64,000 nucleotides of DNA from Azolla caroliniana (lineage: Eukaryota > Plantae > Polypodiophyta): positions 1,798,001 to 1,862,000 of the forward strand of contig JBHGNT010000022.1 of assembly GCA_043228905.1 (NCBI GenBank), in the 5' to 3' direction. Position 1 is the stretch's first letter, and the number at the start of each line of letters is the position of its first letter. Below, one piece after another: positions 3,721-58,350 of this stretch. The notes below the pieces were generated by a model. That model did no database searches. It was not told the DNA's origin and saw only the letters and a program-made list of their open reading frames with translations. The position numbers were made by a program, and so were the translations under genes.

Positions 3721-4917
3721 TTACTCTTCTTCAACCTCGATGTTCGAGGATACATCATCTAGATCTTCGATCTCAAGATTTGGGGCTTCTCTTCTCTTAA
3801 AGATCTTGATCCTCTTCCCTGCTATCGGCAAAGCAAGTCGAGTTCCATCCAACTCCGCTAAAAAATAGGTTGCATTGCTTTCTACTTTCTTGACCATATA
3901 CGGGCCAAACCATCGTTTTGCAAACTTTCGAGCAGTGCTATATTGATTATCGAGACTACTATCATAGACAAGAACCCAATCTCCTTCTTCAATTTTTCTT
4001 TGTCGAAGACGATGCTTTCTATCAAAATTCTCCTTGTTCTTCAATCGAGCTTGGTGCAACCGTTCTATTGCCAACTAGACATCTTCGAGCCTTCATTCTA
4101 ATTGTTGAATCCTCATGGCTAGCAAGTCTTCCCGACTCATTTCCTCTTGCCATGGCAAAGACGTCCACGAAGCAACACTTTGCTCAATAGGCATTATTGG
4201 TTTTTGTCCTAATATGAGTTCGGCGGGCATATATCCCGTAGTCGTGCTATGTGTAGTTCTATCTGCCCACAATGCATAAGGTAGTAATCGTGGCCAATTT
4301 CCCATCTTGCCATCGCAAGCCTTTGCTAGAGCTTTTACAATTGGACTATGTCCTCGTTCCACCTTCCCATTTGCGTCCGAGTTGTATGCCATGGTGAGCG
4401 ATAATTTGACGCCTATTCTTGAAAAGAACTCTTTAGCTTCATTCGCATCTAATTCTCCTCTATCGGCCACTATTTTGCCAACACATCCGTATCGACAAAT
4501 AACATCTTCAAGGAGAAACCTACAAACCGCCGAAGTTGTTTTATTCCTTAGCGCTCGTCCTTCTACTTGGTTGGTGAGATCCTCTCTTGCTAGCACGAGA
4601 TATTTCAATTGCCCCAATCCCATTGGCATAACCACTATGTCTACCAACCACTTATAGTGCATTGATAATGGATATGTCAGATGAAGTTCATCCCTATGTT
4701 GAATATTCGAGTATAATTGGCATTGCTCACATGTTTCAACATAGCTTGCTACATCTTTGTAAACACCCGGCCACCAATACTTCTCCTTGAGCTTTGCAAA
4801 TGTTGCCCATATACCACGATGACCTGCCCACACACTATCATGAAATTCAACAATTAGTGTTTGTTGATCCTGTTTCTTGCACACCACTCGAAGTGGAGTT
4901 CCATTCTTTTTCTTCAA
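3721..4917 (-). pseudogene. gypsy integrase (HHCC zinc finger, DDE core, GPY/F C-terminus; no chromodomain), split by a stop
   Basis: FHDSVWAGHRG...CEQC, DIVVM, ADRGE, NGKVERGH, KRWFGPY in ORFs 4093-4917 and 3721-4074. Confidence 0.9.
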
Positions 4918-4971
4918 AAACTTCCATAGATGTCCTTCTTTGAGGAAGAACTTGTAGGCCTTCTTCCTAAT

Positions 4972-5590
4972 TCAGTAGAAGTCTTCCTTTGACCATGATT
5001 CATCTTTTGTAAGAGAGCTTAAGTATTTGCCAATTTCGATGAATTCACCCTCATAATCTTCTACTTTGAACACTGCTAGCACCCGAGCACAAGAAACTGT
5101 AAAGAAGTTTAGGCCAACATCCTCTTCGTCGGAGTGCAAATCTTCTTCACCCTCATACCTCGCCCTTGATAACATATCGGCCACCACATTATGCTTTCCA
5201 TTTATATGCCGAATCTCGGGGTTGAGGGACTTGATATAGGCAATCCATCGCAGCATAGCAATATCCGGTGTAGCACAACCGGATATCATTCCGAGAATAG
5301 GTAGACAGTCGGTTTCGATTATGACCTCTAATCCTATAAGGTAGTCACAGTCGGTTTTAACCGCGGATACTATTCCCCATAGCTCTCTCTTTACTTGAGC
5401 ATACTTCCTTAGTCTTTCGGTTAACACCTTCGCACCAAATCGGATTGCTTACCGATTCTTTTCTTTGTCTTCTTGGTTTATCACTCATCCACTTCCGGTT
5501 GGGCTCGTATCCACCATCACATATATCGGGGTACCATCGGTGTAGTCGGCTTTGCACAGTGCTGGAGCTTCCAATAATAGTTTCTTTAGC
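4972..5590 (-). pseudogene. gypsy RNase H region, frameshifted
   Basis: YAQVKRELWGIV, ETDCLP, RWIAYI, GKHNVVADMLSR motifs. Confidence 0.85.
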
Positions 5591-5592
5591 TT

Positions 5593-7172
5593 TCAAATCG
5601 CGTAGGTATGCTCATCTTCCCATTCGAACTTCTTCCTTTTCTTTAATAGTCCATACAATGGTTCAGTGACATGGGCATAATGTGGAATCCATATGTGATA
5701 GAATGCACATGCTCCCAAGAATCTACGCACCTCCGTTTGAGACACACATTCTTCTTTCATCTCTTGAATAGCGTTCACCTTGGATGGAGATGGTTTCCGG
5801 CCATAAGACCCACATAAGTGTCCTACTACCAATATTTCTGGTTGACCGAATGTAGACTTCTCTCTCGAAAGCGTGAGATTCGCATCCTCAAGCTTTTGCA
5901 ACACCTTCTCGCTATCCTTTATATGATCGATGACGAATCTTCGACAACCATCTTCATCTTTCGATTCATCTTTCTCTTCCATCAAGCATCCTTTGATTGG
6001 AATGTCATCTAAGAAGGGCATTGTGATATCGGGGATGCAATCCCTCAACACTTTATTCATGGCATTCACCATGTGGGCTACGGAATTTGTTGCACCTTGG
6101 GGTAAGGTGCACATCCTTACCAACCCGATCGGCATCCTCATTGTCGTTATGTCTCTACTATTGACGGCCAATTGAAATTGATCATAGCCCGAGTAGAGAT
6201 CTCCAATGGAATAGATCAATCTTCTCGCGAAGGCTTCGGCAAATTCATCCACGCTTGGACCAATTCCGGCATTTCGGATCGTCACCTTGTTGACAGGTTG
6301 GAGATCTTGTATAAAGCATAAGGACCCGTTCTTCTTCGGCACCGTAAACCATCTATTAGAGTAGGGAGCATTGGATGGCTCAAGAATTCCCATCCTAACC
6401 TTTTCCTTTAGAAGCTCAATCAACTTTGGAATGTGAGCTCTTGGAACCGGTATCGGCTTGAGGTTCCAAGGTACATGTGGCACCATAAAAATCACCATCG
6501 GCTCTATCATCTTCGGGTCGGCACATCCGATCTCTTGTGGAGAGAAGGCAAAGGCTTTCCCATGTCTCTCAAGCATTCCGCGGAACATTCTCTCCTCTTC
6601 AGGGAGAAGGAAATCTTCCCTTCCAACTTGTAGCTTTCCTTTCGTCTCTTTGGTGAAGACATGACCTATTGCCTTTGGATCCCTTAAGCTCGGGTCATTG
6701 GCAACTTCTTTCATCTTCTGCCAGCTATCTTCCGGTAGCGGAACCGCAACTGGCTTGATCTTCTTATCCACCGTTTTATATTTTGTGTTGACTTCAGCTT
6801 CCTCCATCAAGATGCCTCGATGATATTCATCGATGATAGCGTACATGTTGACGGAGTTAACCGAAATCACATTTTGATCATGAGGGTAGCTCAAGTCCAC
6901 GACTTCCTCGATTTCACCGATGGTGTCGTTAAATGAGGCTTCCTCTAGAATATGAGACACGAATTCTTCTTCTTCGATTATGCTTTCTTCTTTCAGCATC
7001 TTCTCGAAGTCTTGTATCTTACGCTTGTCCTTCTTGTTGAGTACTGTTAGTTTACATGCGCCACTAGGTGTCACACATGTTGCTTCTCCTTGCGATCCAC
7101 TTATTTCGCTTCCTTGTGGGGACTTATGATTGCTCGGACTATTTGTGCCCCACGCTTCAATAGTCCGCTCTA
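5593..7172 (-). pseudogene. gypsy reverse transcriptase (pol ORF, in the -1 frame relative to gag-PR)
   Basis: VPKKNGSL, DLYSGYDQ, LPQGATNS, FLDD, VRRFLG motifs; frame is open upstream to the U-rich site at 7172. Confidence 0.92.
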
Positions 7173-7595
7173 AAAAACTGAGGATTCGCCTCCAAGGCTA
7201 TCTCGGTTCCTTTCGTGATTAGCCCGCACCGTAAGGAATTGAATAGATCTTTGATTGTCAAGGCTCTTGACTCGCGTGAAGGCCACTCCGTTATCGAACA
7301 CCTTAGTCTCCATCCGGGACGATGTGATATATGGTTGTCCTAGGATGATGGGATGTGAAGCCGAGTCTTGCACGAAGAAGTGTTGATCCATCTCCACATC
7401 TCCGATCGTGACTTTAACATTGGGGCAAGCTCCGTACAGGTCTTCCGTGGCCTTCGTTTCCGCTCGTATCTTCCATCCGTGGTTTGTGTTGATCGGCCAT
7501 CTTCCTTTCTTGTAGAATTTAGTGGACATGAGGTTGATCTCCGAACCATGGTCAATCAAGGCTACCACGGTCTCCTTCTTCTCTCCGATCTTCAC
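7170..7595 (-). pseudogene. gypsy aspartic protease
   Basis: ALIDHGSEINLM catalytic motif and IILGQPY motif. Confidence 0.85.
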
Positions 7596-8022
7596 CGGCG
7601 TCTCTGTTGTCGCTCTTGCCTAATGAGGCCGAGAGTAATGGTTGTCCGCCATCACTTCTTCTTCCTCCTCCTCTTCGGATCTTGCCATGGTTATGGCACT
7701 TGTTTTCACCTCTTCTTCATCCGATTGTTGCCGCTTCCGCTTAATCAAGTCCACGATAGTATCGTGGAACTCCTTCTTAGCGATCCCAAGTAGCTCTCTC
7801 AAAGTAAGGTCGACATGACTGTCTAAAACCTTCTCCTCAAGGACCTTCCGCAAGTTGGTTGTTTGTTCTATGTCCGACCTTAGCTTGTAAGTCGGCGCCA
7901 CTCGTTCCTTTCCTTTCTTCACAGATTCATCGACTTCCATCCGAGAAGGTTGGCTCGATCCACCGGGCTTCATGCTTGTTTCTCCTATCTCTTTTCGTGG
8001 CGTAGGTTGGGCTTGTCCTTCT

Positions 8023-8325
8023 TGTTGGAGATCAAGGTCGTCTATGCGGAAGATCAAGAAGCATTCGATTCTGTTCTGAGTACCTGCGTATGACAGTTTC
8101 TACGATCTTGCACAGAGAGAGAGAGAGAGAGAGAGAGAGGCACAAAAGACTTTCTATTCCACAAAGCAATAATACAACACCCAACCTTACAAAAAGGTTA
8201 CAAGGTCACTATATATAGTGACCGACTTAGGGCAACTACCCTTTATGCTAATTACACAAATGGCCCAAACTTGAGCTATAGAAGGGGATAGTGTGAATAC
8301 GTCCATTATACACTTGTATTCGACA
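8023..8325 (-). repeat. 3' LTR of copia B1
   Basis: TG...CA, near-identical to 13208-13504. Confidence 0.96.
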
Positions 8326-8517
8326 CTCCCCCGTAATGGGCGTATACATGGGTTATCTAAGATTACAGGTATAAACTTAGGTTCTCGGACATATCAGTTT
8401 TGTTCGAGTCGGCAGGGTCCGAGGCAGAAGACCGAACTGGTCGGGTCGGAAGAGTTGAAGCCGATCATTAAGGAACTGATGTCGGTTGTCGGAAACCATC
8501 CTGCGCTGTGTCCGGCT

Positions 8518-11500
8518 CTAACCGGACTGGTTTGTCGTTACGCCCATCTGATGCCGAAGAGACCGAAAGCGGTCTGCCGAAAGACACTTGGTCATTCCAT
8601 CTACGACATTGTCGGTTGTGGATATTTTCTCTAGACCGATTTTCCCTGAAATGACGCAGTCCCGAACGAAGTGATATCGAACGTCGATATGTTTGGAGGC
8701 GTTGTGGTGAACCGGATTTCTCGACAAGGCAACAGCACCTTGACTGTCGCTATAGACAACTGGGGCCGAGTCATGGTCGACTTGTCGAAACGTGTGCGCC
8801 AGCCGACCGAGCCACAAAGCTTCTTTTGCTGCGTCGGACGCAGCTACATATTCTGCTTCGGTCGTTGAGGTCGCTGTGCACTCCTGAAGTTTCGACTTCC
8901 ACGAGATTGCTCCATTGCCGAATTTGAAGCAGTATCCGGTTGTTGATTTCCGATTGTCTATACAGCCGGCGAAGTCCGAGTCGGTGTAACCGACTACGCC
9001 TGAGGTTCGGTTCGGACCGAAAAGAATGTCGTGGTCTTTTGTGCCAGCCAGATATCTGAACACATGCTTGACTGCGTTCCAATGCGATCGGCCGGGATTG
9101 TGCATAAATCTGCTAACGACTCCTACGGCGTGAGAAATATCAGGCCGTGTCGCGACCATCAGGTACATAAGGGAGCCGACTGCCGGTGCATACGGTACCG
9201 ACTTCATATCTTCCCCCTCCGGACCGGATGTCGGGCAGTCTCGCTGAGAGAGCCGAAGATTCATGGGGAGCGGGGTTGAAGCAGATTTGGCTGATTGCAT
9301 GTTGAAGCGTTCCAAGACACGTCGGATATAGTCGGTCTGAGACAAAAAAAGATGTCGTTTATCGCGATGCCGACTAATCTTCATGCCGAGTATGTGTCGT
9401 GCCGGACCGAGGTCCTTCATGGCAAACTTCAACCGCAGTTGCCGAATGAGATCGGCAAGTTCGCCCGCGTGGCGTCCAGAAATTAGCATGTCGTCCACGT
9501 AAATGATGAGGAAGATGGGTGATCCATCTTGAGCTGTGTTGGTAAAAAGACAATGGTCCTCATCGCTTTTTGAGAAGCCGATCGATTGGATGAAGTCGTC
9601 GAACTTCTTGTACCATTGTCGCGGTGCCTGTTTGAGGCCGTATAGACTCTTCCTGAGTCGGCAGACTAGATGTTCTTGGCCAGGTGCCACGAAGCCTTTT
9701 GGCTGCTCCATATAAATTTCCTCTTCAAGATCACCATGGAGGAAGGCTGTTTTGACATCTAGCTGAATCAGCTCCAAGTTGTCGGCTGCCACTACGCCGA
9801 GTAGAAAACGAAGGGTTGTCATTTTCACCACTGGTGAAAAAATCTCGTCGAAGTCGACGCCATATTCTTGTTGGAAGCCCTTCGCAACTAATCTGGCCTT
9901 GTACTTTGGGGTGGTCGAATCAGACGTCTCTTTTAGTCGATAAACCCACTTGCAAGGAAGAGCACGTCGGTTCCTAGGTAATTCGACCAGATCCCAAGTC
10001 TTGTTTGCCCGAATGGAGTGCATTTCCGACTCCATCGCCAGATGCCAGGTGGCTGAATCGACAGATGTCGATGCTTCTTCGTAAGACGTCGGTTCGCCGG
10101 CGTCGGTGAAGAAAATTCCAGGAGAATACCTCTCCGGAGGTTGCGACAGTCTCTCGGATCGTCGAGGTATGATTGGACTGGTCGCATCGGGTATCGAGGT
10201 CGGATGGTCCGAAAGCTGCTGTGCCGAGTCAGAGTTGTCTGAATCGGTAGTGTAAGGTTCAGCTACCCGTGAAGCTGACCGTGTGTTAAGAGTGGGGCCT
10301 TCTTGAAGGGTCGGCACATCGGAAAATGTTACCCTTCGGACTTCGATCGGTTTTTCGACTGATGGATTCATAGCCGACTCGTTGAACACAACGTCCGAAC
10401 TTCGGACGATTTGTCTGCGTTCGGGATCCCAGAGTCGGTATCCCATTTCGCCGTCGGATCCATATCCAAGGAAAATGCATTTCCTGGACCGAGGTGCAAG
10501 TTTTCGGCGATCATCTTTCGGAATAAGGGCGTACGCCTCGCATCCGAAGATCCTCAGCTTGTCGTAATTCGGCTTACTGCCGATCCATAGTTCCTGAGGA
10601 ATTTGAAGTCCTAGAGGTCTACTTGGCGACATATTGATTATGTGTACTGCCGTGAGTAGAGCCTCTGCCCAGAAGCCATCCGACAATCCGGAGTGTTGGA
10701 GCATGGAAACTATCCGTTCTTGGATTGTCCGATTCATGCGTTCGGCAATCCCGTTTTGCTCCGGGCTGTGTGGTGCCGTAAATTCACGTCGGATGCCGCG
10801 TTGTCGGCAGAATTTGACGAATTCTTCGGATTTGAACTCTCCCCCATTGTCTGTCCGAAAGCATTTCAGCTTTCGGTCGGTTTGATTTTCTACCATAGCG
10901 AGCCAATCGGTGAAGATCGAGAAGACACGATCTTTGGTGCGAATTGGATAAGCCCACACCTTTCGAGTCGAATCGTCAATAAAATTGACGAAGTAAGAGG
11001 CACCGCCGAGAGACTGATGCGGCATTGGGCCACAGACGTCCGAGTGGACTAAATCGAGAGGTCTCGTTTCTCTTGGTGCTGATGTCGGGTGTGATGCGGC
11101 TGCTTGTTTGCCATACTGGCAATGCTCGCAGAATTGATGGTCGGAGAAGGAGAGTTTGGGGATGTATCCGGCTCTAGATAGATGCGTAATGCCGGCCTTG
11201 CTGAGGTGTCCTAATCTTCGGTGCCATAGTGATGACACAGGAATATCCACCAAAAACAGGTTACCCTCTCTGAGCGTAACATGTAGCGGATACAGTGAGT
11301 GTATCTTGGGTCCTCTAGCAAGCAGGAGGTTCCCCCTGTGGAGTGTCCACCCTCCCGAAGAAAAACCGGCACGAATGCCGTCTTCATCTAGTTGTCCGAC
11401 TGAGATCAATGGCCTTGAGAGCTCGGGTACATGTCGGACATTGTGAAGTACAAGTGTAGAGCCACCTGCAAGGTTGAGCTCTACTGTGCCGATTCCGATG

Positions 11501-11700
11501 ATGTCACAGTGTTGTGAGTTGCCGACTCGAACTGAGTCGGAGTGACGGATCGTATATTGCCGAAATTGGGATCTATGAGGAGTCACGTGAAATGACGCGC
11601 CCGAATCCAAGAGCCATGTGCTTGATTCTTCAGTCGTGAGCAAAACTTCTGAGCCGATTGGATTTTCGATTGATAGTATATTCGGGTCGTTTGGTAGCAC
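8518..11700 (-). CDS. copia B1 pol polyprotein (PR-INT-RT-RNase H), uninterrupted 1060-aa ORF; frame stays open upstream through the gag zinc knuckle to about 12010
   Basis: WLLDSGAS, HSDVCGP, RTDNGGEF, IYVDDM, SKHIDVRYHF; CNYCKKPGHIKADC encoded in frame near 11780-11820. Confidence 0.95.
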   Translation of the reverse strand: MLPNDPNILSIENPIGSEVLLTTEESSTWLLDSGASFHVTPHRSQFRQYTIRHSDSVRVGNSQHCDIIGIGTVELNLAGGSTLVLHNVRHVPELSRPLISVGQLDEDGIRAGFSSGGWTLHRGNLLLARGPKIHSLYPLHVTLREGNLFLVDIPVSSLWHRRLGHLSKAGITHLSRAGYIPKLSFSDHQFCEHCQYGKQAAASHPTSAPRETRPLDLVHSDVCGPMPHQSLGGASYFVNFIDDSTRKVWAYPIRTKDRVFSIFTDWLAMVENQTDRKLKCFRTDNGGEFKSEEFVKFCRQRGIRREFTAPHSPEQNGIAERMNRTIQERIVSMLQHSGLSDGFWAEALLTAVHIINMSPSRPLGLQIPQELWIGSKPNYDKLRIFGCEAYALIPKDDRRKLAPRSRKCIFLGYGSDGEMGYRLWDPERRQIVRSSDVVFNESAMNPSVEKPIEVRRVTFSDVPTLQEGPTLNTRSASRVAEPYTTDSDNSDSAQQLSDHPTSIPDATSPIIPRRSERLSQPPERYSPGIFFTDAGEPTSYEEASTSVDSATWHLAMESEMHSIRANKTWDLVELPRNRRALPCKWVYRLKETSDSTTPKYKARLVAKGFQQEYGVDFDEIFSPVVKMTTLRFLLGVVAADNLELIQLDVKTAFLHGDLEEEIYMEQPKGFVAPGQEHLVCRLRKSLYGLKQAPRQWYKKFDDFIQSIGFSKSDEDHCLFTNTAQDGSPIFLIIYVDDMLISGRHAGELADLIRQLRLKFAMKDLGPARHILGMKISRHRDKRHLFLSQTDYIRRVLERFNMQSAKSASTPLPMNLRLSQRDCPTSGPEGEDMKSVPYAPAVGSLMYLMVATRPDISHAVGVVSRFMHNPGRSHWNAVKHVFRYLAGTKDHDILFGPNRTSGVVGYTDSDFAGCIDNRKSTTGYCFKFGNGAISWKSKLQECTATSTTEAEYVAASDAAKEALWLGRLAHTFRQVDHDSAPVVYSDSQGAVALSRNPVHHNASKHIDVRYHFVRDCVISGKIGLEKISTTDNVVDGMTKCLSADRFRSLRHQMGVTTNQSG

Positions 11701-12001
11701 ATCAGCTGAGAAGCTGACGTAATTGATCTCCTCATGCCAGCCACTCTTCTTGTTGTTCTTGTTCTTGAGTGCACGGCAGTCGGCTTTGATGTGTCCGGGT
11801 TTCTTGCAATAGTTGCAGATTCGGTTATCCCGTGACTGGCTCCGTCTTCGCTGATTGTTCGGCGGCCGTGAGGAATCTCTTCCTCGTGTGTTCGATCGGT
11901 CTCTCGAACCTTGTACTACGTAAGCGTCGTCTGTTGAGTCTTTGGCGAAAGACTTTCTCCGAGCTGCTTCGGTCAGGATTGCGCTCGTGACTTCGGAGTA
12001 T

Positions 12002-12514
12002 TTAACAGCCGTGGCACACGGTTGTGACGAAAGTTTCCCATGATGAGGGAAGGCTGCTCATGAGTATCATTGCTCTGAGTTCATCCTCGATTGCCGTCCC
12101 CTGTGACGAGATTTGGGAGCTTATGCTTTCGTACTCATTGAGATGTGCTTGAACCGAATCGGATTCTTTCATCCGCAAGTTGTAGAGGCGCCGGATCAGA
12201 AACATCTTCGTTGCGGCGACCTTCTTTTCGTAAGTGTCCGACAGTGTTTTCCACAGTTCGAATGCTGTCGTACACGATTGCACCGTAAAGTATACCGATT
12301 CCGATAGGTGCATCCGAATCGTGGCGCGGACGATTCTGTCCAGCTTCTGCCACTCAATTGGTTTGTATCCTTCTGGAGGTTCTTCATTTTCGATGGGATC
12401 GATTTGCCCCTTGACTATGAGATAGTCCTGCATTTGCTCCTTCCAGAAGTTGAAGTTCGATCCATCGAACTTTCGTAGACTCATTTCTGACGAGCCGGAT
12501 GTTGATGCCATCAA
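12002..12514 (-). pseudogene. copia B1 gag N-terminal part, frameshifted near 12010
   Basis: KFDGSNFNFWK, LMSSLPSSWETF; the related copy B2 reads TTVCNASTATVKY where B1 has a short deletion. Confidence 0.88.
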
Positions 12515-13193
12515 ATTTGGTTTCGGTTGACGAAGCTCGGTTCGGAGTTGACTACGAACCTTGTGGGAGTGCAGCCGGTTGGCTCACCCGATATCGTTCT
12601 AGTCGGATTTGAACCCGAGTCGGTTCGGCTTCGGATATATGTATTGTTGAACTTGCTCGAATTGACTCCGGTAACTTGAGGGACAGAACCGACTGGTCTT
12701 CCCGAAAGTTGCCGAGTCTGGGTGAGCCCGGTTCGCTTCGGATATATATGCCGAATACCGATTATTGAAACCGATTGTCTGGACCGATTCTGCTTTGGGT
12801 GGCTGCAGCGACGAGAGAGACAGATCCAACTGATCCTCTCGAATGTCGATCAGCCGGATGAAGCACGAATTGGGGTTGTTGTCTTGAGACCGATCTGCAC
12901 CGAGTGGTTACAATGAGCGGCGAGCAGCGATTGATGACCTCTTCGGATGCCGTTTAACCGAGTGGAGCACGATCGTGTCAATGTTGCACAAGGGGATTTC
13001 ACCTCGAGCGGTTACGATCACAGGGAATAGAGTACAACCTGTTGGCTTACTCCAAGCGAAGATGATCTAACGCGATGAGGTGCGAGCCTCGTTTTTCTTC
13101 TTCTTCTCTCTTCTTCGAATGACGCAAGAAACCGAATGCTGTGCAGGTTGAGACGACGTCCGACAGCGGATTGAAGGACCGAATACTGTGCAG

Positions 13194-13205
13194 GCTCTGA
13201 TACCA
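13194..13205 (-). other. Primer-binding site (tRNA-iMet) of copia B1
   Basis: TGGTATCAGAGC on the minus strand, 2 nt from the LTR. Confidence 0.95.
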
Positions 13206-13207
13206 GA

Positions 13208-13504
13208 TGTTGGAGATCAAGGTCGTCTATGCGGAAGATCAAGAAGCATTCGATTCTGTTCTGAGTACCTGCGTATGACAGTTTCTACGATCTTGCACAG
13301 AGAGAGAGAGAGAGAGAGGCACAAAAGACTTTCTATTCCACAAAGCAATAGTACAACACCCAACCTTACAAAAAGGTTACAAGGTCACTATATATAGTGA
13401 CCGACTTAGGGCAACTACCCTTTATGCTAATTACACAAATGGCCCAAACTTGAGCTATAGAAGGGGATAGTGTGAATACGTCCATTATACACTTGTATTC
13501 GACA
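13208..13504 (-). repeat. 5' LTR of copia B1
   Basis: TG...CA, adjacent PBS, TSD immediately outside. Confidence 0.96.
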
Positions 13505-13509
13505 CTTCT

Positions 13510-14840
13510 TTCCCTGCATTCCTTGTATTGTGACGCTTTGAGGTGCCATCTTCTTCACCGGTTCTTTTCCTCTTCTCTTCGACAAGAGCCTCATAGTTGT
13601 CGCACACAACCTCCGCAAAGCTTGTGTTATCGTCGACTGGATCCGACCATCCGGTTACTTGTCGCACATTCCGATCAGCATGTTTGAGATCCTCCAAATC
13701 TATTTTTCCTTTCTTTTCACACTCGAATACCGTTGGCCAAAACCCAATTCCCGGCTTGATCGTCTTTAGATTCTCTCTTCCGACTCGTATTCCCGCCGAT
13801 GCGGCGTAGTGCATGGCTTCCACATGCCTTGCAACTTCCTCTTCCACAATCTTTTTCAGCCCGCCTCTTCCAAAGTTCACTCGTAGCGGCTTTCGGGTCT
13901 CGCTCGAGTGAATCATGTTGCCGTCCAAATAGACGACATTCTTGCAAATCGCGTCTTGCAAGTCAGTGCACTCCCTTCGTGAGTGCTCGAAGTTGTCGCA
14001 CCACACACATCTATATGCTTCTTTTCCCTTTTGCCCGCGTCGACCTAAGTTGGCCAATGATACCACTTCAAACTTCTTGGAGAGCTCTTCGATTATAGAT
14101 TCCTCCATCGCTTTCTTGTCGAAATTGTTGATCGGCTTGTTAGACTCAATCGTCACAGGTGCATTCCTTCTCCACGATTGTGGATTCTCCATATCAGTTT
14201 CCTCTTGCCATTGTCGACGCTTATCAAGACGGCTCCAAGCCTTCTTCACCGCCGCCCAGTCCGCCACCAAGCCATTTGGTTATGTTTCATCCTCCAAAAA
14301 GTTACCCAATTCACGCCGATCTTTTGCATCCATTGCCTTCAGGAATAGTAGGACTTTATCTCCACCGAGAACTCGTTGATCAACACTCGGAAGTCGGTTA
14401 TACTTCTGGTCGAATTCGGCATATACTCCAGACGCACACATATTCTTCCCTTTCTTCTCGATCCAAGACATTAGCGTATGTCGAGTCATCCGTGATGGGT
14501 CTTCAAGCATGTATTCGGCGAGAAGCGCCTTTTCGAACTCCGCCCAAGTTGCATGCTCGCTTTGAATCTCCATGATGCGGTTGCAGATCTGTGGTTCCAC
14601 CACACGTTTAAAGCTAGAAATTTGTTTGAGATCGTTGACATCCCTTTGTTGCATCTCGTTCCGATAGGTAGCGAGAAGATCCGTGATGTTCTTGCCACTA
14701 AATCATCCAGCTATCTCGACCGTACGATCAACAGCTTTGTCGATTAAAGCTTCTCGATCTCTCACCTTCAGCATGTATTCCACTATGTACACCATACCTT
14801 TCGTTAATTCCTCTCCTTGAGTTCCGCTTGTTGAAGCCAT
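13510..14840 (-). pseudogene. gypsy gag with in-frame stops; continues at 7620-8022 on the other side of B1
   Basis: ATG at 14840 (MASTSG...), FSGKNIT, TWAEFEKALL, zinc-knuckle-like CVWCDNFEHSRREC. Confidence 0.8.
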
Positions 14841-14871: not shown

Positions 14872-14889
14872 TTCACGTCGGGTTCACCA
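14872..14889 (-). other. Primer-binding site complementary to the tRNA-Trp 3' end
   Basis: Plus strand TTCACGTCGGGTTCACCA matches the 3' 18 nt of plant cytosolic tRNA-Trp as I recall it; 8 nt from the LTR end. Confidence 0.85.
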
Positions 14890-52200: not shown

Positions 52201-53628
52201 CGAGTGTATAATGGCCGTATTCACACTGTCCCTTTGGACAGCCCAAGTTCGGGCTATTTTTGTAAATAGCATAAAGGGCAGTTGCCCTAGGATAGTCACT
52301 ATATAAAGTGACTTTGTAACCTTTAGTGAGGGTTGTTGTTGGTTGTCATTTGTAACGATTGCTATTGCAATATAACGTTCATTTTGTGCCTCTCTCTCTC
52401 TCTCTCCCTCTGTGTCTATCTTGCTCGCGCATACATAGGTTCTTCTTCATCACGAATGTTGCTTGTACTTCCGCACTGACGGCCTTGTCCCCAACATTTG
52501 GTATCAAAGCGTTGGAGGTTCTTCAACCCGCTGCTGGCCGTCATCGCACAACATTCTGTTTTTCGTTTTCTTTGAAGAACAGAGAAGGGGTGCGGATGAA
52601 AGAATCCGATTCGGTCCAGGCACACCTCAACTAGTATGAAAACATAAGCTCCCAAATCTCGTCTCAGGGGATGGCAATCGAGGATGAACTCAGAGCAATG
52701 ATACTCATGAGTAGTCTCCCCTCTTCATGGGAAACTTTCGTTACAACCGTGTGCAATGCTTCAACAGCTACCGTTAAGTACTCCGAAGTCATGAGCGCAA
52801 TCCTGACTAAAGTAGCTCGGAGAAAGTCTTTCGCCAAAGACTCGGCAGATGAAGCTTACATAGTACAAGGTTTGACCGACCGATCGAACAACCGGGGAAG
52901 AAGTTCTTCCCAACCGGCGAACAATCAGCAAACCCGGAGCAAGTCCCGGGACAACTGAATTTGCAACTGCTGCAGGAAATCGGGAAACATCAAAGTCGAC
53001 TGCCGGGCACTCAAAGCAAAAACTGACAAAGCTCAGAGAACGAATCAAAAGAGTAGCTGGCATGAGGAGGTCAACTACGTCAGCTCTTCAACCGAAATTT
53101 TGACGACCGACCCGAACATATTGTCCATAGAGAACCCACTCGAATCAGAAGTTCTACTTACGGCTGAGGAATCGAGCACATGGCTCCTGGACTCGGGTGG
53201 ATCGTATCATGTGACACCTCACCGATCTCAGTTTCGGCAATACTCGGATCGGCACTCCGACTCAGTTCGAGTCGGAAACTCGTAGCACTGTGCTATAATC
53301 GGAATCGGCACCGTAGAGCTCAATCTTCCGGGAGGCTCTACACTCGTACTACACAACGTCCGACACGTTCCTGAGCTCTCAAGACTCTTGATCTCAGTCG
53401 GACAACTTGACGAAGCCGGCATCTGTGTCGGATTCTCATCAGGAGGGTGGACACTACACAAAGGGAACCTCCTGCTTGCTCGAGGACCAAAGGTACATTC
53501 CTTGTATCCTTTATATGTCACACTCAAAGAGGGTGACTTATTTTTGGTTGATATCCCCGTGTCAATGTTATGGCACGGACGACTTGGACACCTCAGTAAG
53601 GCCGGCATAACGCACCTATGCAGAACCG

Positions 53629-55302
53629 GTGTTGTGTTGCCGGTGTCTCCATTGCTGCCATTACTGTTGTTATTCACATCCCTTTTCATCTTCATCATCT
53701 TCTTCTTCTGCTTCTTCTACGGCTTCTTGTAACCATGTATGTTACATCTCCAAACTCTCCTCCTCGGATCACCAATTCTGCGAGCATTGCCAGTACGGCA
53801 AACAAGTAGCCACATCACACCCGACATCAACACCAAGAGAATCGAGTCCCCTCGATTTGGTCCACTCGGACGTCTGTGGCCCGATGCCACATCAGTCTCT
53901 CGGCGGTGCTTCGTACTTCGTCAGTTTTATTGACGACGCGACTTGGAAGGTGTGGGCTTACCCCATCAGAACCAAAGATCGGGTGTTCTCGATCTTCTCC
54001 GAATGGCTTGCAATAGTCAAAGATCAGACTGGTCAGAAACTGAAATGTCTCCGAACCGACAATGGAGGAGAATTCAAGTCTGAAGAATTCGTCAAATTCT
54101 GCCGGGAACGCGGCATTCGACCTGTATATACGACACCCTATAGTTTGGAGCAGAACGGAATTGCTGAACGCATGAATCAAACGATTCAAGAATGTGTAGT
54201 ATCCATGCTCCAACACTCTGGACTGTCGGATGGCTTCTGGGCGGAGGCTTTACTTATGGCAGTACACATAATAAATATGTCACCAAGTAGACCTCTAGGA
54301 CTTCAAATACCTCAGGAAATATGGACCGACAGTAAGCCAAATTATGAAAAATTGAGGATCTTCGGTTTCAAGGCGTATGCTCTCATACCGAAAGACAACC
54401 ACCGGAAACTCGAACCAAGGTCAAGGAAATGTGTTTTTCTTGGATATGGACTCGACGGCGAGATCAGATACCGACTCTGGGAGCCCGAGCATAGACAAAT
54501 TGTCCGAAGTTCGGACGTCGTGTTCAACGAGTCGGCCATGCATAAAATGGCCGAAAGACCTATTGAAGTCCGAAGGGTAATATTTTTTGAAGTGCCAACC
54601 CTTCATGACGGCCCAGCACACAACACGAGATCGGTTTCATGGGTAATCGACAACTCTCGTACCGAATCCACCTATTCGGCACAGTCGAATGGCTCGGCTC
54701 CCGACTATCTGACATTGACACCCGGTGCGACTAGTCCAGTAATACCTCGCAGATCTGAGAGACTCTCGCAACCTCCAGAGAGGTACTCTCCTGGAATTTT
54801 CTTTACCGACGTCGGCAAACTGACTTCTTACGAAGAAGCATCGGCATCTTCCGATTCAGCCACATGGCATCTAGCGATGGAGTCGGAAATGCACTCCATT
54901 CGGGCAAACAAGACTTGGGACTTGGTCGAATTGCCGAAGAATCGACGTGCTCTTCCGTGTAAGTGGGTCTATCGACTAAAAGAGACATCCGACTCGACCA
55001 CCCCAAAGTACAAGGCCAGATTAGTTGTGAAGGGATTTCGACAAGAATATGGCGTCGACTTCGACGAAATCTTTTCACCAGTGGTGAAAATGACAACCCT
55101 TCGTTTCATGCTTAGTGTTGTGGCCGTCGAAAACTTGGAGCTGATTCAGCTAGATGTAAAAATGGCATTCCTCCATGGTGACCTACAGGAGGAAATCTAT
55201 ATGGAGGAGCCGAAAGGCTTTGTGGCATCCGACCAGGAACATCTAGTTTTCCGACTTAGGAAGAGTCTCTACGACCTCAAACAGGCACCCCGACAGTGGT
55301 AA
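53629..55302 (+). pseudogene. copia B2 integrase and RT N-terminus
   Basis: HSDVCGP, RTDNGGEF, QLDVKMAF; premature stop at 55300. Confidence 0.88.
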
Positions 55303-55607
55303 AAGAAGTTCGACGACTTCATCCAATTGGTTGGCTTCTCAAAGAGCGATGAGGACCACTATCTCTTTACCAAAACAGCTCAAGATGGGTCTCCCGTCTT
55401 CCTCATCATCTACGTGGACGACATGCTCCTCTCCGGCTGGCATGCTGGAGAACTCACTGAACTCGTTTGGAAACTGCAATTGAAGTTTGCAATGAAGGAC
55501 CTCGGTCCGACAAGACACATACTTGGTATGAAAATCAGTCGGCATTGCGATACACGACAACTTTTCTTGTCTCAAACTGACTACATCGGACGTGTCTTGG
55601 AACGCTT

Positions 55608-56426
55608 TGTTGAGAACTAGTCGTTCCTTATGCTCAACACTCGGCCACAACCGAGCTTAGAATCATACACAGAAAACGGGAAGTAAATGCACGACACAAA
55701 GGAGAGAAAAGGTACACAAGATGTTTATGTGGAAAACCCAAACTAAGGGAAAAACCATGGCAACCCACAGGCTGCAAACTATCACTATGTTGGAATGTAC
55801 AAACAGTGAGTTCACGGAGGCAACGACCTCATGCTCACTATCTTCGCCACAGGCGGCGGTTACAACAGAGGCATCGACCTCTTTCTCTCTCTCTCTCTCT
55901 CTGTACACTATTACACACTCTAATCTCGTGCAAAACAGGAATGACAACAACAACCAAACACTAAAAGTTTGCCCTAAGTCATATTTATACTAATATGACT
56001 TTTCGGCTATTTACAAATATAGCCTCAATGGACTCTCAGAAACATATTTACGAATATGTCTCTTCATCCGGTTCTCACCGGGTCTGCACCATCTGGCTCT
56101 CCGTAGCCGGGTACTCCTCATCCGGATCTCACCGGATCTGCGTCATCCGGCTCTCCGTAGCCGGGTACTCCTCATCCGGTTCTCACCGGGTCTGCGTCAT
56201 CCGGCTCTCCGTAGCCAGGTACTCCTCATCTGGTTCTCACTGGGTCTGCGTCATCCGGCTCTCTGTAGCCGGGTACTCCTCATCCGGTTCATACCGGGTC
56301 TGCGTCATCCGGCTCTCCGTAGCCGGGTACTCCTCATCCGGTTCTCACCGGGTCTGCACCATCAGGCTCTCCGTAGCCGGGTACTCCTCATCCGGTTTCC
56401 CATCCGGAGGGACCTGTCTCCCAACA
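55608..56426 (-). mobile_element. Solo LTR related to copia C, inserted in B2 RT
   Basis: TG...CA, perfect TSD CGCTT at 55603-55607 and 56427-56431; minus-strand start TGTTGGGAGACAGGTCCCTCCGGATG resembles 26842. Confidence 0.93.
56064..56396. repeat. 54-bp tandem array (about 6 copies) in the solo LTR U3
   Basis: TCATCCGGTTCTCACCGGGTCTGCGTCATCCGGCTCTCCGTAGCCGGGTACTCC repeated. Confidence 0.95.
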
Positions 56427-58350
56427 CGCTTCAACATGCACTCGGCCAAGTCTGCTTCGACCCCGCTCCCCATCAACCTTTGGTTGTCTCAGCGAGACTG
56501 CTTGACATCCGGTTCGGAGGGGGAAGATATGAAGTCGATACCGTATGCACAGGCAATCGGCTCCCTGATGTACGCGATGGTCACGACACGGCCTGATATT
56601 TCTCATGCCGTAGGAGTCATCAACAGATTCATGCACAACCCCGGCCGATCGCACTGGAACGCAGTCAAGCAAGTGTTCAGATATCTCGCTGGCACAAAAG
56701 ACCACGACATTCTTTTCGGCCCGAACTCAACCTCAGGCGTAGTCGGTTACACCGACTCAGACTTCGCCGGCTGTGTGGACAGTCGGAAATGAACAATCGG
56801 ATATTGTTTCAAATTCGGCAATGGAACAATCTCGTGGAAATCAAAACTTCAGGAGTGCATAACCACCTCAACAACCGAAGCGGAATATGTAGCTGCGTCC
56901 GACGCGACAAAAGAAGCTTTATGGCTTGGTCGACTGGCGCACACGTTTCGGCAGGTCAACTCCGACTCGGCTCCAGTTGTCTACAACGACAGTCAGGGTG
57001 CTGTTGCTTTGTCAAAAAATCCGGTTCACAACAACGCCTCTAAGCATATCGACGTTCGATATCACTTCGTTCGGGACTGCGTCATTTCAGGGAAAATCGG
57101 TCGAGAGAAGATATCCACAACTGATAATGTCGTAGATGGAATGACCAAGTGTATTTCGGCGGATCGTTTCCGGTCCCTTCGGCACCAGATGGGCGTAACG
57201 AAAAATCGGTCCGGTTACAATCAGACACACAACACAGGACGGTTTCGGACAACCGACATCGGTTCTCTGAGGATCGGCTTCAGCTCTTCCGACCCGACCG
57301 GTTCGGTCTTCTGTCTTCGGATCTTGCCGACTCTGACAAAACCGATCTGTCCGATAAACCTTGTATATATACCTGGAGCAGCGAGTAGCAGCCGACAGTA
57401 GCACTGTGGAGCACTGAGGCTGAATACTGAGGAGCGGTTGTCGCAACATGCGAAGCCATATGGCTCAAGCGGGTACAGAAGGATCTGCAGATGGAGGTGT
57501 CCGACCCGACGATGATCCATTGTGACAATCTCAACAGTATCCAACTGGCGAAGAACTTTGTTTTCCACGCCGGACCAAGAAAACCTTTAGGTGTACTACC
57601 ATTTTGTCCGTGAACGTGTCCTCTCTAGTGAGATCGAACTAGTATACGTTTCGACAGATCGGTAGGTGGCCGATATCTTCCTCAAACCCTTAGGTCTTGA
57701 CAAGTTGCGGCAATTCTCAGGCATGCTTGGTGTGCAACACCTCGATATGCCGAACTTAAGGGGGAGGAATGAAAGGAATAAAAGGGGAAGAGATTGTCAA
57801 AACGAACTACGGAATCAAGCCGAGAAAGAAGATGTCTGGAAAACCGAATCAGATACCGATTTCAATTTCGGTTCGACTAAAGAAGTCAGAATGTTCGGAT
57901 CAGATGAAGAAGGTAAGGACGGATGGACATGCACAGATAGAATGGACAAGTGGAGACTTGTCAAACGCAGGGGGAGCGACCACAAAGGGAAGCCGGAGCC
58001 GAAGCCAACCAAGGAAGGGGGGAGGCAAAGCCAAGAAGGGCAACAAGGTCAAGACACGGACATGGTCCGATGTTGTGAAGGGCTTGCAGACTGAAGACAA
58101 GTTGGAGACAGCCAACTCGGGCAAAAGTGGGAACGAATAAGAGACAATTGATTCGATTGAGATGTTTGTTTCGGAGGAGCCGAATCGACTAGAGGCCAAA
58201 GGCCAAGGGAGCAGACAAGCGGATTGAGAAGGTCAAGGTGCGCGGAATTGAACGGGTGAAGGAGTGCGAGAAGAGGCCAGAAGAAGCTAACTGCAAAGCT
58301 CAACAAACACTAACAACACGATCCAACCTCAAGTTGAGCTTGAGGGGGAG

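Follow-up and report, generated by a model that had tools for sequence, protein, structure and literature searches.

In Rous sarcoma virus, the protease lies within gag and the slippery heptamer abuts the stop codon. A pseudoknot-stimulated −1 shift near the end of this first open reading frame (ORF) leads into pol (PMC5009743, available sections). The same sections place ribosomal stimulators typically 5–9 nt downstream, and give G_GA as a first triplet and the heptamer G_GAU_UUU as known −1 sites, from umbra- and dianthoviruses. Plant LTR retrotransposons are mostly single-ORF elements that rely on splicing or a stop instead of recoding (excerpts of PMC5580714 and PMC6317226), and a 2003 survey had only +1 arrangements in plants, as summarised in the part of PMC5009743 at hand. 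Ogre and Retand (Tat) resemble the family described here in that the break falls between protease (PR) and reverse transcriptase (RT), but the break is an intron in Ogre and a single in-frame stop in Retand, whereas the ORFs of the present family overlap in different frames; Tcn1 and Selgy also have overlapping ORFs, yet at the gag/protease boundary. The REXdb survey gives the ORF organisation of the Phygy lineage as 'not determined' and lists a gag-PR / −1 / RT-RH-INT layout for no plant lineage. The initial annotation of the DNA analysed here had called a pro/pol frameshift with an adjacent stop codon unusual for plants.

Our literature search, with most subscription journals and Repbase notes outside its coverage, found no account of the signal reported below. 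In the available text of PMC7466625 the words 'frameshift' and 'ORF' do not occur, the portions of PMC12786077 and PMC5580714 at hand treat frameshifting in general terms and splicing for plants, and the accessible part of a Chlamydomonas preprint (10.1101/2022.06.16.496473) mentions retrotransposon frameshifts in passing only. The comparisons presented here argue that the recoding signal is genuine and conserved. Its kind is known, but for this lineage no description was found.

The element lies on the minus strand of a 64,000-nt stretch of an Azolla caroliniana contig (JBHGNT010000022.1), i.e., the whole of the DNA analysed, which we call the window. Its gag part (7620..14840) and the protease end of the gag-PR frame (7170..7619) share one frame, and RT, RNase H and integrase are encoded in a −1 frame (pol, 3721..7197) that is broken by stops in this copy. 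The initial annotation had gag-PR ending in the minus-strand codons TCA GTT TTT TAG at 7181-7170, which can be read directly from the sequence, and the RT frame is, as it also claimed, exactly −1 and open across the site, from 7197 to 5596. The heptamer position is 7173..7179, with A_GUU_UUU in the window copy and G_GAU_UUU in the family, and the UAG closing the gag-PR frame is 7170..7172. Pfam identified RVT_1, RNase H and integrase in the downstream frame and, as a weak match below the cut-off, an aspartyl protease in the upstream frame. This element is a dead copy: both gag and pol contain stops, and a copia element is nested in gag (about 8024-13506, minus strand). The copia element is about 5.5 kb long, with terminal repeats identical over 208 nt and an ORF of 1179 codons, and the start of its gag (12002-12583) overlaps in another frame; an inverted related copy lies at about 52773-57229 and contains a tandem repeat with a 54-nt period (56006-56437). 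No second PR or RT of the gypsy family was found elsewhere within the 64-kb window.

Downstream of the heptamer, a spacer of 5 nt (7168..7172, minus strand as for all features of the site) leads to the first stem-1 pair of the window, and 6 nt lead to the first pair shared by the family. Stem 1 of the predicted pseudoknot joins the 5′ arm CGGACTATT (7159..7167) to its partner AATAGTCCG (7135..7143), and stem 2 joins GTGGGG, within the stem-1 loop (7148..7153), to CCCCAC (7116..7121), with loops of 5, 4 and 13 nt. Both stems of the H-type pseudoknot proposed at the outset pair in the window as described, but the outermost stem-2 pair, G7153-C7116, is unformed in the closest relatives, where position 7153 is A. 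Pseudoknot prediction, suggested then as a check, gave the window a score of 39 against a shuffle mean of 2.1, a score that none of 40 shuffles reached, and the nested fold had a z of −2.75. The minus-strand GGACU at 7167-7163, in the stem-1 5′ arm, can also pair with AGUCC at 7125-7121, adjoining the stem-2 3′ arm; the nested fold of one related locus, L001, favours this alternative pairing, which would make a two-state RNA possible.

A metagenome scan for relatives retained 80 of 181 matching loci, with 58–94% protease identity; 75 of the 80, all from a single accession series, are assembled from multicopy repeats, and the samples are non-independent. An RT match was present in 64 of the 80 loci, and in 59 of these it lay in an overlapping downstream ORF at −1, as in a canonical −1 signal, with four at +1/−2 and one at 0. 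Stops separate the site from RT in three of these five exceptions, namely the frame-0 locus and two of the four +1 loci. Where pol is open for at least 500 codons from the site (38 loci), 36 are at −1, two at −2 and none in frame, or 37 and two among 39 sequences once the window is added; intact members with PR and RT in the same frame, which the initial annotation had named as evidence against its own reading, were thus absent from these 38. A gag-PR of at least 650 codons was found in 26 of the 30 loci having a pol of at least 1000 codons.

These data bear on a rival explanation, in which the frame change arose by an indel peculiar to one dead copy and the stems pair by chance. The window copy is dead indeed, but the offset, the heptamer and both stems are common to loci down to about 60% PR identity, and in contigs from four runs, which cover three organism labels and three studies, no indel is listed at the U-run; several of these contigs span the site without gaps. 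Because offset, heptamer and stems recur across loci, the offset is not an indel of the window copy and is, by this comparison, a feature of the family; the private indel, already refuted by the family data, is left with negligible probability.

Protein databases extend the family, with 233 longer protease relatives of which 120 were listed, the named ones coming from Physcomitrium, Riccia and Adiantum. Among the 120 proteins listed, 62 have a C-terminal [DGV]F and 33 more have [DGV]F one to six residues from the end, and 23 of 69 more distant representatives continue past the site. Viral contigs were scanned for relatives and none were found. For the protease of one homologue, atlas neighbours include Basidiomycota clusters, which we note as a lead.

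Sites were located by the pattern G[AGT]T TTY, which leaves the first base, the following codon and the structure as the sole free tests; four loci had no such site, one ended at the site and one ran off. Under this pattern 76 sites were located, in 75 loci and in the window: 64 G_GAU_UUU, five G_GAU_UUC, two G_GGU_UUU, two G_GUU_UUU, one G_GUU_UUC, one A_GAU_UUU and the A_GUU_UUU of the window. The family conforms to X_XXY_YYZ in the zero frame if GGA, GGU or GUU is tolerated as XXX, with G_GAU_UUU/C at 69 of 76 sites. Where the minus strand of the window has A (7179) and U (7177), the relatives carry G and A, respectively, and the contigs of the runs differ from the window base in essentially all depth at 7177 and in 92–97% at 7179, which gives G_GAU_UUU. 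Read against its relatives, the window heptamer is a decayed form of the family G_GAU_UUU, two substitutions away. The initial annotation had noticed this odd heptamer and offered either a mutated site or single-tRNA slippage at the stop; the family bears out the former, and the latter is unneeded because a sense codon follows the heptamer in 7 of 55 distinct sites. The first base of the heptamer is G in 53 of the 55 distinct sites, in the third position of codons for 12 amino acids, compared with 26% G at upstream third positions. Six loci have a pol frame that opens just two codons before the site, which ties the shift to it.

A stop codon stands directly 3′ of the heptamer in 48 of the 55 distinct sites and otherwise one to five codons later, partly within stem 1; across this sample the adjacent stop is usual but not required. 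In L058, L060, L078 and L079 the gag-PR stop falls within stem 1, five codons past the heptamer, and the pseudoknot sequence is different; Physcomitrium and Adiantum proteins ending in DF/GF-xxx-PL have a late gag-PR stop as in the L058 group, and in L076 an adjacent stop is present as well as the later one. A candidate C_CCU_UUA heptamer behind PL* protein ends proved wrong, the DNA being CCA TTG TAA within stem 1, with the heptamer five codons upstream.

A stop placed directly before a pseudoknot at most sites would also suit pseudoknot-stimulated readthrough of the kind known from murine leukaemia virus, and, with a spacing of 9 nt, a frameshift pseudoknot is able to promote readthrough (PMC3458567, available part). 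Here the gap from stop to stem is 2–3 nt, all three stop codons are used, and seven sites have no adjacent stop at all. Moreover, RT lies outside frame 0, and because this frame closes within 64 codons past the stop, readthrough cannot reach RT and is excluded as a route to it; we give it next to no probability as the explanation of the site.

The pseudoknot itself was examined over the 55 distinct sites. In a plain MAFFT alignment, 84.5% of stem-1 cells are paired, against 22–44% for slid controls, and two-sided change is seen at 8 of 10 pairs in a count that ignores shared ancestry; of the outer two pairs, one is broken in 36 and the other in 32 of the 55 sites. Stem 2 was tested free of alignment, since its 3′ arm floats with loop length, and its 5′ arms scored 14.4 with their own partner against 11.6 with foreign arms, a value that 0 of 20,000 permutations equalled, with 17 distinct 5′ cores and ancestry uncorrected. 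Pairings range from GUGGGG/CCCCAC and GCGAGA/UCUCGC to CAAGG/CCUUG and ACAGGG/CCCUGU. A pseudoknot score of at least 30 was obtained at 49 of 55 sites (below 30 at the other six); of 2086 control windows, 59 scored as high, and so did five of 93 further words resembling the heptamer. The spacer from heptamer to stem is 6 nt in 53 sites and 5 nt in the remaining two, L049 and L055, which places the covariation-supported 3′ structure within the 5–9 nt expected of a canonical −1 signal. Nested folding recovered stem 1 in four of five sequences, the other pairing appearing in L001, and the nested fold of L058 was no better than shuffles. The stem sequences also encode a linker peptide of pol. Covariation in both stems supports a conserved H-type pseudoknot; the family copies, which the initial annotation had proposed to check, keep the frame offset and show compensatory changes in each stem. 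In the L024-L042 subfamily, many members could form a CCGG-N4-5-CCGG hairpin in loop 3 over the end of stem 1, as a possible third stem or a competitor.

The family therefore has a two-ORF layout with a −1 offset, a conserved heptamer and covarying stems. From this combination, we consider it highly probable that it makes pol by −1 frameshifting at the heptamer with the help of the pseudoknot, and the original annotation, which placed a −1 frameshift and its H-type pseudoknot between PR and RT, appears well founded in the conserved offset, the conserved heptamer and the two-stem covariation. Gag and protease would be translated in one frame and RT-RNase H-integrase in the overlapping −1 frame. 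Most ribosomes would terminate at the adjacent stop and release Gag-PR, while the pseudoknot, 5–7 nt past G_GAU_UUU, would hold ribosomes so that a minority slip back by one base. We infer tandem slippage, in which tRNA-Asp and tRNA-Phe would re-pair from GAU UUU to GGA UUU, with much Gag-PR and little Gag-PR-Pol as the outcome; the slipped ribosomes would make the full Gag-PR-Pol, and RT and integrase would be rationed against Gag-PR.

An intron, as in Ogre, could in principle remove the stop and join PR to RT in frame. The TTTTTAG of the window resembles a 3′ splice site, and 15 gene models from Physcomitrium and Riccia, among the 120 proteins listed and all eukaryotic gene models, fuse PR to RT-side sequence. 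However, the heptamer is followed directly by an open pol frame, which leaves nothing to splice out. At 15 of 55 sites the final 90 nt of gag-PR contain a donor-like word, with at most six at one offset, and an AG after the U-run sits at five different offsets and is absent from 6 of 55 sites. The junctions of 11 of the 15 gene models are at several different places, and splicing leaves both the invariant first G and the pseudoknot unexplained. We regard an intron as very improbable. In the public models P0001, P0063, P0064, P0071-P0079, P0092 and others, PR is joined to RT-side sequence at differing points, and these fusions probably reflect introns predicted so as to bypass the frameshift.

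Separate expression of pol, by termination-reinitiation, an internal start or polymerase slippage on the U-run, is a little less remote but still improbable. A pol-frame AUG does occur just upstream of the site in both −2 loci (three codons in L049; 6 and 23 in L055), and reverse transcriptase is reported to slip at the HIV U6A site (PMC5737442). In the −1 loci, however, the first pol-frame Met comes 2 to 110 codons after the site, making an internal start unlikely in that group, and the U-run is just 4–5 long in most of the family. The pseudoknot, besides, falls within the 5–9 nt typical of ribosomal stimulators in the accessible sections of PMC5009743.

The two loci with an intact pol at −2 deserve separate treatment. 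L049 (2497-2560) and L055 (2835-2900) have AG_GUU_UUU within the site sequence CAG GTT TTT xAC TAG GAC T and a 5-nt spacer, and their pseudoknots, five bases past the heptamer, score 40 and 44. Their −2 frames are open for 1099 and 1152 codons, respectively, and the −1 frame is shut after 5 and 0; in L055 the −2 frame carries RT, RNase H and integrase by Pfam. The two are sisters in a quick tree (support 100), and their pol sequences share 82% identity, with a dS of 1.16 against a dN of 0.10, from which it follows that the −2 offset has outlasted long purifying selection. Contigs from three of four runs span the L055 site without gaps, those of the fourth (depth 2369) also do so, though at the rule's limit, with no indel listed; among pol clusters, those that match have 54 and 6 members. 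Both loci show the arterivirus-type combination of G_GUU_UUU, a downstream ORF at −2 and a closed −1 frame. The C-rich arterivirus motif CCCANCUCC, expected 9–10 nt downstream, is absent from L049 and L055, and the pseudoknot occupies its place.

In the laboratory, −2 slipping works best at spacers 1–2 nt shorter than those for −1 (PMC3458567, available part). In L049 and L055 the landing codons would lie as far from the pseudoknot as before, and the take-off site would have become AG_GUU_UUU, one base closer. We lean, with some reserve, towards the reading that one clade turned the −1 cassette into a natural pseudoknot-driven −2 frameshift as its route to RT. A +1 shift, which gives the same resulting frame as −2, and reinitiation at the pol-frame AUG a few codons upstream are open alternatives for these two loci.

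The element likely belongs to the Phygy lineage of non-chromovirus Ty3/gypsy elements, given its moss relatives, its primer-binding site and its want of a chromodomain. The primer-binding site is 18 nt long (14872..14889, minus strand), is common to 10 of the 11 related loci examined and presumably matches tRNA-Trp, as the Phygy site does. The order GAG-PR-RT-RH-INT is present, and Pfam identified no chromodomain or extra RNase H in the window, L001 or L055, an absent Pfam match being weak evidence. Phygy elements are further marked by a target-site duplication of 4 bp, NCGN. Moss relatives and the lack of a chromodomain and of a second RNase H are shared with Phygy as defined in REXdb; the present family differs in having relatives from Riccia and Adiantum as well.

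If the proposed reading holds, the lineage supplies a plant −1 signal with a covarying pseudoknot, settles the ORF organisation of its likely lineage, explains the varying invented introns in gene models of these elements and offers dozens of natural pseudoknot variants for plant ribosomes. The natural −1/−2 pair, one spacer base apart, would make the mRNA-tension model directly testable on evolved sequences, and the −2 clade would be evolution's version of the laboratory spacer result.

Compared with Rous sarcoma virus, the family is a plant retrotransposon with a G_GAU_UUU heptamer and a compact two-stem pseudoknot. Pea enation mosaic virus 2 and red clover necrotic mosaic virus share the heptamer, the plant ribosomes and a stop shortly after it (PMC5009743, available sections), but umbra- and dianthoviruses use a stem-loop with long-range pairing to express their RdRp (same sections), whereas the family would use a local H-type pseudoknot before RT. 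Arterivirus nsp2TF, made by −2/−1 shifting, uses the G_GUU_UUU of the −2 clade, at which A-site re-pairing is possible and P-site re-pairing limited (PMC6675879, available part). Arteriviruses rely on a protein complex bound to the C-rich motif 9–10 nt downstream, whereas the −2 clade has a covarying pseudoknot 5 nt downstream, and in this clade, unlike in arteriviruses, the shift would be the route to RT.
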